Shown here in pieces: positions 9,945-10,012 of a stretch of 64,000 nucleotides of DNA. The translations under genes and the position numbers were made by a program. Under the pieces are notes generated by a model. It saw only the letters and a list, made by a program, of their open reading frames with translations. It did no database searches and was not told the DNA's origin. Source of the DNA: Octopus sinensis (lineage: Eukaryota); assembly GCF_006345805.1 (NCBI RefSeq), contig NC_043000.1, positions 9,052,001 through 9,116,000 of the forward strand, in the 5' to 3' direction. Position 1 is the stretch's first letter, and each line of letters begins with the position of its first letter.

Positions 9945-10012
9945 GCGGATCTCAGAATTAAACAGCCGAAATCTGCGATGAGGGATCAGTTTCTGACTGA
10001 AGAATGAAGGCT
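9945..10012 (+). ncRNA. Non-circularly permuted hammerhead-like motif (copy 1)
   Basis: GCGGAT-C-TCAGAA ... AGCC-GAAA-TCTGC ... TTCTGA-CTGAAGA-ATGAA-GGCT; stems TCAGAA/TTCTGA, GCGGAT/ATCTGC, AGCC/GGCT. Confidence 0.65.

Follow-up and report, generated by a model that had tools for sequence, protein, structure and literature searches.

Naiad-type retroelements of Octopus sinensis carry a conserved pseudoknotted RNA module best read as a permuted hammerhead

The DNA analysed here, called the window throughout, is a stretch of 64,000 nucleotides (nt) from Octopus sinensis (assembly GCF_006345805.1, contig NC_043000.1, positions 9,052,001 to 9,116,000), and all positions below count from its first letter. 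Positions 9929-10003 hold a conserved pseudoknotted module with a complete hammerhead core, the strands of which come in the order cleavage site, GAAA, CUGANGA, and which is predicted to cleave itself after C9951. I put the probability of this reading at about 0.6. The motif is a real, conserved, pseudoknotted RNA of Naiad-type Penelope-like elements and of the non-autonomous elements derived from them. Its best reading is a non-circularly permuted hammerhead of a further variant, in which Block C (the CUGANGA strand with stem II) is split and a hinge resembles a kink-turn. An initial annotation of the window had placed a hammerhead-type core in reversed strand order at 9945-10012; every element named there lies where it was said to lie, with the same layout at 23241. 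The reversed order is already known: it is the "type SGC" described in passages of Eckert et al. 2023 (PMC10085705). The parts of the module, and the element that bears it, are these.

9569-10090, tail to about 10126, + strand: retroelement copy bearing the module, sublineage C1, non-autonomous, (TA)n-tailed, delimited by shared borders
9929-9932, + strand: stem II 5' strand GGCU (G10.1 side), upstream of all other parts; the partner better supported by covariation
9935-9941, + strand: 5' strand of helix P_a, CUGCUUC here and CUGAUUC in the family (90% canonical, 7 of 7 pairs change on both sides)
9942-9944, + strand: AGA, non-bulged strand of the putative kink-turn-like loop (3n, 2n, 1n); the NGA adjoins stem III (a sequence pattern)
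9945-9950, + strand: stem III 3' strand GCGGAU, with U16.1 at 9950 (93-95% paired, 4 of 5 pairs change on both sides)
9951, + strand: C17, cleavage predicted between 9951 and 9952
9952-9957, + strand: stem I 5' strand UCAGAA (95-96% paired)
9958-9963, + strand: 6-nt linker UUAAAC between the distal ends of stems I and II (Naiad copies have AG, 2 nt)
9964-9967, + strand: stem II 3' strand AGCC, with C11.1 at 9967
9968-9971, + strand: G12 A13 A14 A15.1, GAAA in all lineage majority sequences
9971-9976, + strand: stem III 5' strand AUCUGC
9977-9982, + strand: GAUGAG, bulged strand of the putative kink-turn-like loop (L1-L3 GAU, then G.A, A.G, 3b)
9983-9989, + strand: P_a 3' strand GGAUCAG, followed by U9990 as a 1-nt spacer
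9991-9996, + strand: stem I 3' strand UUCUGA
9997-10003, + strand: C3 U4 G5 A6 A7 G8 A9 (CUGAAGA), directly after stem I
10004-10008, + strand: AUGAA, a 5-nt insert
10009-10012, + strand: GGCU, an alternative partner of AGCC in some lineages only (80.1% paired)

Four helices covary: stem I, stem III, stem II as made with the upstream strand, and P_a. They were judged on a parse of 108 copies that takes the two GA dinucleotides, rather than pairing, as its anchors; 90 of the 108 have GA on each strand, a linker of 6-7 nt and a 5-nt insert, as the row filter demands. Across 80 distinct rows anchored in this way, canonical pairs make up 96% of stem I, 95% of stem III, 90% of P_a and 91% of upstream stem II, and both sides change in 3 of 6, 4 of 5, 7 of 7 and 2 of 4 pairs respectively; for none of the four does any of 500 shuffles reach the observed paired share. 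The initial annotation had noticed covariation of stems I and III between the copy studied here (copy 1) and that at 23241 (copy 2). It extends to about 12 sublineages and to the autonomous Naiad element, and it survives in a larger model alignment of 111 distinct rows, where 92.3% of cells in stems I, III and upstream II form pairs (78.4% on average after shuffling), the covariation score is 0.400 where shuffling gives 0.178, 0 of 500 shuffles match either figure, and registers slid against each other pair only 16-37%; the shuffles ignore the relatedness of the copies, so these figures are not probabilities, and it is the slid registers and the table of lineage forms that carry the argument. 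Both sides change in 11 of the 15 pairs of these three stems, 3 of 4 in upstream stem II, which is 88-91% paired across both counts.

The lineage forms are as follows. Stem I is UCAGAA/UUCUGA in copy 1 (TCAGAA/TTCTGA as DNA), UCAAGA/UCUUGA in copy 2, and elsewhere UCAAGU/ACUUGA, with UCGAGU/ACUCGA in one copy and CUGCCC/GGGCAG in Naiad. Stem III has longer forms, GCGGAU/AUCUGC (GCGGAT/ATCTGC in the DNA of copy 1), GCAAAU/AUUUGC and GCGAU/AUUGC (copy 2), and forms of the type ACxxU: ACAGU/ACUGU, ACUGU/ACAGU, ACCGU/ACGGU and ACCAU/AUGGU. Its middle pair is A-U in 49 rows of the 111-row alignment, U-A in 18, C-G in 17 and G-U in 14. Upstream stem II reads GGCU/AGCC, GGGC/GCCC or GGCCGG/CCGGCC, and GACAC/GUGUC in Naiad copies. 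P_a occurs as CCGAUUC/GAAUCGG, CCGGAUC/GAUCCGG, CCGAGUU/GAUUCGG and ACCAGAU/AUCUGGU.

Some of the compensated pairs have arisen through two CpG transitions on opposite strands, ACCGU/ACGGU giving ACCAU/AUGGU and GGCCGG/CCGGCC giving GGCCAG/CUGGCC. These are seen in copies of sublineages E4 and E3 (e.g. L153-L181, L128, L131), where pairing is kept along the fastest mutational path.

P_a did not figure in the initial annotation. Its 5' strand immediately precedes stem III, and its 3' strand is contained in what had been described as a linker. Two linkers, of 10 and 14 nt, had been proposed, and the lengths are right: the first (9958-9967) is TTAAACAGCC, the end of which is AGCC, and the second (9977-9990) is GATGAGGGATCAGT. 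The second is no linker; it consists of the kink-turn-like strand followed by the 3' strand of P_a. MAFFT and covariance-model alignments place P_a out of register between lineage groups, and it was re-registered from the GA anchors; the 79.8% pairing that it shows on the unmended model alignment is an underestimate. The loop between P_a and stem III sets NGA against NNN-GA-N, the latter in all cephalopod lineages, and has the sequence signature of a kink-turn: a canonical stem (stem III), a 3-nt bulge, tandem G.A/A.G and a second helix, all of this as a pattern of letters. A limited reading of the literature turned up no description of a kink-turn in a hammerhead. The UGAUGA and CUGA words of the module brought to mind a box C/D small nucleolar RNA, and the matches found were to archaeal sR models only, at E values of 5.5-7.3 and far under gathering scores; the GA words are explained by the internal kink-turn-like loop.

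The unpaired letters are those of a hammerhead. C3, U4, G5, A6, G8, A9, G12, A13, A14 and the A15.1-U16.1 pair are identical in every lineage majority sequence, while N7 of CUGANGA is A, C, G or U according to sublineage. H17 is C, A or U and never G, the triplets being GUC, AUC, AUA and AUU. Copy 1 has the intact core that was first ascribed to it, with CUGAAGA at 9997-10003, GAAA at 9968-9971 and U9950-C9951 in place. Thus a CUGANGA strand with free N7, GAAA, the A9971-U9950 pair and three covarying helices are all present. A hammerhead should also have A9 joined directly to G10.1, and here it is not: 5 nt precede the downstream GGCU, and the better-supported partner is upstream.

The architecture is not confined to the non-autonomous family. 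The autonomous Naiad Penelope-like element of this genome ends in the same arrangement with different helix sequences. A short pattern for the Naiad 3' end has 127 matches here and 0 for its control; the majority sequence of 30 fetched copies has the letters of the published consensus, and the family's identity as Naiad follows from those letters being identical to the consensus 3' end. That consensus, as given for Naiad_Obim and Naiad_Ovul in the sequences consulted from PMC8557442, reads GACAC-C-GCCGGAU-UGA-AUGGU-A-CUGCCC-AG-GUGUC-GAAA-CCAU-AAUGAU-AUCCGUG-GGGCAG-CUGAUGA. The strand order is that of the window module (upstream stem II GACAC/GUGUC, stem III AUGGU/ACCAU, stem I CUGCCC/GGGCAG), and P_a (CGGAU/AUCCG), a UGA/AAUGAU loop and A17 are there as well. 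GUGUC has no downstream partner in these copies. Three open reading frames (ORFs) upstream of the Naiad 3' ends matched no Pfam family. Naiads are reported, in passages of Craig et al. 2021 (PMC8557442), to lack canonical hammerheads, and in the portion of its File S1 used here Naiad_Ovul and Naiad_Esco are scored as "HHR_half_core".

Records from other phyla point the same way. They were parsed by eye, from passages of the PMC8557442 supplement only, and all that is said of them here has that scope. Three Acropora-type records read GGCUCC-U-CCUGAAAUGU-UCUG-CAAUUGGU-A-UAGGAU-UUAAU-GGAGCC-GAAA-CCAAUUG-...-ACAUUUUAGG-C-AUCCUA-CUGAUGA, two of the three being fully complementary, and one AT-rich record has the same strand order. 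Four nematode-type records (two near part 13, one before >Naiad-3_Nbra and one before >Naiad_Hpol) run CUGAYGA strand, site strand, GAAA strand; in them G10.1 follows A9 directly, GUC is the site triplet, and stems I and II are linked by a bridging helix. Closing this nematode form to a ring and opening it between A9 and G10.1 would, on the letters of these records, give the form of corals and cephalopods.

How does the module compare with permuted hammerheads already described? According to the parts of Eckert, Friedrich, Weinberg and Weinberg, Nucleic Acids Research 2023 (PMC10085705) drawn on here, two non-circular permutations, types SGC and CSG, have been found and validated: both are known from metatranscriptomes and metagenomes only, both cleave in vitro at the expected site, and both combine a bridging helix with a short linker that joins stem I to stem II. 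The authors assumed that the three blocks of the hammerhead cannot be interrupted, and they drew attention to a difficulty of geometry, left unexplained, at the junction of the bridging helix with stem III. The window module resembles type SGC (HRIMA-1 and variants) in its site/GAAA/CUGANGA order, in keeping all core letters, in the short linker between stems I and II (6 nt here, 2 nt in Naiad) and in having a helix, P_a, that ties the other sides together. It departs from type SGC in that stem II takes its 5' strand from upstream of the whole motif and the chain ends fall inside Block C, which is thus interrupted, as it would be, by the 5-nt insert, with the downstream strand; and also in that both strands of the bridging helix run on into stem III by way of the kink-turn-like loop. 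The setting differs too, the module sitting in an animal genome in thousands of retroelement copies, with activity that is so far a prediction. Type CSG, represented by two metagenome sequences that cleave in vitro, has the order of the four nematode-type Naiad records, with an intact CUGAYGA-stem II block; the window copy is not itself CSG but would be the same ring opened elsewhere.

P_a ties together the far ends of stems I and II and returns to stem III through the kink-turn-like loop. I propose that the fold is the three-way core of a hammerhead closed by a second, distal three-way junction, in effect a type SGC/CSG ring opened between A9 and G10.1. Such a module would likely catalyse the usual hammerhead transesterification, and the RNAs it cleaved would yield short copies with 5' ends piled up just 3' of the site.

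The genome offers a way to look for those ends. Two hundred listed copies found by a 3' anchor alone were inspected over 80 letters; the counts were made by hand, with an uncertainty of about 2 nt. The homology runs through the module in 114, four have internal deletions, seven show no homology in the 80 letters, and 75 are truncated within those letters. Of these 75 ends, the 14 nt that begin at U1.1 hold 40, the approximately 33 nt before them 10 and the approximately 32 nt after them 25, an excess with a binomial p of 2e-12 against a uniform spread. Some of the ends within this hot zone stand beside flanks other than (TA)n. The hot zone fits templates that start at the 5' end of a cleavage product, which is a hint, and for self-cleavage after C9951, as predicted from the letters of the module, I give odds from about even to moderately favourable.

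Several observations weigh against the reading. The ends do not peak at U1.1; they range over 0-13 nt with their greatest density 8-12 nt downstream, and a few lie just upstream of the site, at -2, -4 and -7. Microhomology between the AT-rich linker and (TA)n targets could be another source of ends. Four runs examined at the level of contigs gave no joints and no pile-up of ends, contigs being uninformative on ends. As to structure, P_a contains a U.C mismatch in A2, an abundant sublineage that forms tandems; the shuffle control is, as noted, blind to the kinship of copies; and with upstream stem II Block C is split, a thing that the published authors assumed to be impossible and of which no active example is known. 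Rfam gave no ribozyme family, either at gathering thresholds over the whole window or at E values up to 10 for 9800-10150 and the Naiad copy, a null that says little because covariance models cannot encode reordered strands. Among the records from other phyla, Naiad_Aacu has one mismatch in each of stems I, II and III; a ctenophore-type record before >Naiad_Mley shows stems II and III and a long P_a, with stem I unplaced, and was left out; and the coral and AT-rich records lack the GA/GA signature of a kink-turn.

Perhaps the fold derives from a hammerhead and no longer cleaves. It would then serve as a 3' recognition or priming module for a Naiad-type reverse transcriptase, perhaps along with a protein that binds kink-turns, and the core letters would be kept for shape and not for chemistry. 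I consider this unlikely, though a good deal speaks for it: the module sits near the 3' end of autonomous and non-autonomous elements alike, cleavage, so far a prediction only, would sever the template from its own 3' priming end, and the continuity of A9 with G10.1 is broken. Moreover, letters that belong to no hammerhead, GAAGG and GAAUGAC after CUGANGA (10006-10025), are as conserved as the core in cephalopod lineages and are missing from the coral and nematode-type records. They may be a protein site, an alternative stem II strand or part of a closing helix. One such closing helix was tried, CCUUC/GAAGG in the non-autonomous lineages, and was set aside; with a U-rich strand facing a purine-rich one its pairing says little, and the Naiad and coral records do not have it. 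What a binding site does not readily explain is the choice of letters. The catalytic unpaired letters C3-A6, G8, A9 and G12-A14 and a non-G H17 are kept across the cephalopod lineages, and also in the coral and nematode-type records, the helices of which share no sequence, while N7, the sole free position of the core, varies. That is the pattern demanded by catalysis and not by a binding site, and the hot zone of 5' ends adjoins the predicted site.

A second alternative concerns the strand that completes stem II. The initial annotation had paired AGCC with the downstream GGCT that follows the 5-nt insert, and on that pairing the module would be a type SGC hammerhead with stem II made of 9964-9967 and 10009-10012, a 5-nt bulge, and an upstream GGCU that is either irrelevant or a competing, inactive partner. 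The downstream strand is complementary to AGCC or CGGCC in sublineages C1, C1b, A, B, D and E3, its pairing (80.1% of cells) is equalled by 0 of 500 shuffles, and it would put stem II on the same chain as the CUGANGA strand, which is how published type SGC is built. The pairing fails in detail, however. Its third pair (51,117) is open in 56 of 107 rows. E1, E2 and E4 have GCCC, which pairs with an upstream GGGC and does not pair with the downstream GGCC or AGCC; E3 sets CCGGCC against an upstream GGCCGG, the downstream strand reading GGCYG. The downstream complement is absent from the 30 Naiad copies and from the coral records, in all of which the upstream strand is complementary, and an insert of 5 nt exceeds the one or two letters that, at most, follow CUGANGA in known hammerhead alignments (as far as the parts of PMC10085705 consulted go). 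I therefore give the downstream pairing little chance; the upstream GGCU at 9929-9932 looks to be the better-supported partner of AGCC. If stem II is made with the upstream strand, the chain ends lie between A9 and G10.1, and P_a, stem I and stem II would meet at their far ends in a second three-way junction.

Chance resemblance, by which two related repeat copies merely happen to have CTGANGA and GAAA near short complementary words, is barely credible: the words are short (arithmetic gives about 30 CTGANGA expected in a 64-kb window) and the minimum-free-energy nested fold of 9925-10040 is no more stable than its shuffles (z 0.23), but nested folding is blind to pseudoknots and that figure is uninformative, while four helices covary over about 12 lineages, the autonomous Naiad has the same architecture with unrelated helix sequences, and the reversed control patterns have 0 matches.

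Taken jointly, the observations leave room for a wider claim, that Naiads carry non-circularly permuted hammerheads throughout: the CSG form in nematodes and the form open between A9 and G10.1 in corals and cephalopods, with a kink-turn in cephalopods that folds stem III onto the bridging helix, active in thousands of copies and the first in a known animal genome. I regard this as an even bet. If it is true, it would explain why so successful a clade seemed to be without the hammerhead carried by all other endonuclease-bearing Penelope-like elements, and Naiads described as free of hammerheads likely have them in disguise. Permuted ribozymes would move from anonymous RNAs of metatranscriptomes to a tractable animal genome with a clear biological setting. 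The hammerhead core would be seen to tolerate a chain break between A9 and G10.1, which would widen the search space for ribozyme descriptors and provide a new scaffold for engineering. Finally, a natural kink-turn would solve a topological problem of the ribozyme and answer the geometric puzzle of type SGC.

Canonical type I hammerheads of Penelope-like elements and of animal retrozymes have reportedly been described by Cervera and de la Pena in 2014 and by Lunse and colleagues in 2017. The window module resembles such hammerheads, as presented in parts of bioRxiv 10.64898/2026.07.22.740005, in the place of its core, near the 3' end or pseudo-LTR, and in occurring in partial tandems and in non-autonomous derivatives. 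Those are nested three-way junctions that standard descriptors find, often with a short stem III and acting as dimers; the motif of the window is pseudoknotted and was missed by the descriptors of Craig et al. 2021, by which Naiad_Ovul was scored "HHR_half_core". A literature search found no paper tying permuted hammerheads to Naiads or to cephalopod repeats, subscription journals and the 2023 supplements (which may list hosts) lying outside its scope.

The carrier of the module is an abundant retroelement family. The genome pattern GCCGAAAN{18,32}CTGAAGANNGAAGG has 3111 matches, against 0 for the reversed control; it fixes only GCCGAAA and CUGAAGANNGAAGG, and the family has at least 3111 copies in the genome. 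Two further genome searches for it gave 2856 and 416 matches. The 116 letters around the motif are 98-100% identical in the best 40 of 1393 candidates from a first look at the genome. Among 30 fetched loci the copies have in common a 3' border near L001 1666, followed by a tail of (TA)n type, while the 5' border at window position 9569 (L001 1145) recurs at seven other loci and the remaining copies are 5'-truncated at varied points. The element is about 520 nt long, with the module about 100 nt from its 3' end. Its sublineages were named C1, C1b, D, D2, B, A, A2 and F, plus the older E1-E4.

An insertion preference for (TA)n, 5' truncation, partial tandems (of about 2.4 units in some sublineages) and head-to-head inverted truncated copies (at many family junctions, a pair in the window among them) all characterise the family. 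The same traits are described for Naiad-clade Penelope-like elements in the passages used from PMC8557442. No tRNA-derived head of a short interspersed element was found in the element, which has no coding capacity of its own, and a search that took in the flanks of 121 loci found no reverse transcriptase or GIY-YIG ORF in it or beside it, from which it follows that the element is non-autonomous. Enzymes of Naiad type probably mobilise it. BLAST of the non-autonomous elements against the Naiad loci gave microsatellite matches only, so their relation rests on architecture, targets and short shared words.

A loose end at 9989, met in three runs, was considered as a sign of an autonomous partner and rejected; it comes from one locus only, at which a truncated copy runs into another repeat. 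That repeat, at L212 1250-1500, is a different, GC-richer interspersed one, whose end with an AG-rich tail abuts a truncated C1b copy, and contigs of three runs, presumed to be RNA, contain this junction. In the tandems of sublineages A2 and B (L213 947-2803 and L214 1007-2686, with periods of about 777 and 690 nt) the leading unit lacks its 5' part, the units follow one another with no long microsatellite between them, and the array as a whole is flanked by (TA)n. Recurrent internal deletions drop the 5' strands of the module, both in A copies (e.g. G000:C1:736780) and in E copies (L105, L109, L115, L119). These variants lose the 5' strands of stem II, P_a and stem III and retain the upstream TAATGCTC.TAGCTTAG box and the 3' half.

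Within the window the module occurs in four copies besides copy 1:

23215-23331, + strand: copy 2, sublineage A, C17 at 23246 (106.5 bits)
22824-22940, - strand: copy 3, sublineage A, head-to-head with copy 2
55635-55747, + strand: copy 4, E4-like, with its 5' part replaced (79.6 bits and an alignment row)
17311-17396, + strand: copy 5, 5'-truncated inside the module (46.2 bits and an alignment row)

Copy 1 is probably a slightly damaged instance, since the C at 9938, private to it (the family and all contigs compared have A), breaks one pair of P_a. Copy 2 runs GCGAT (23241-23245), C23246, TCAAGA, a 10-nt linker, GAAA, ATTGC, a 14-nt linker, TCTTGA, CTGAAGA, TTGAA and GGCT.

Copies 2 and 3 belong to two 5'-truncated elements of sublineage A, at 22759-23017 and 23138-23396, which form an inverted repeat of 259 nt. 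Its arms are 94% complementary and stand 120 nt apart, (TA)n flanks them on both outer sides, and the arrangement is one described for Penelope-like elements. Weak Rfam matches to mir-297, mir-466 and mir-1277 at 10073-10149 fall in the (TA)n/(CA)n tail of the element and are not microRNA genes. About 600 nt downstream of copy 1, at 10686-11074 (L001 2262-2650), lies a repeat of another family, with matches of 82-93% identity, on either strand, in many of the fetched loci.

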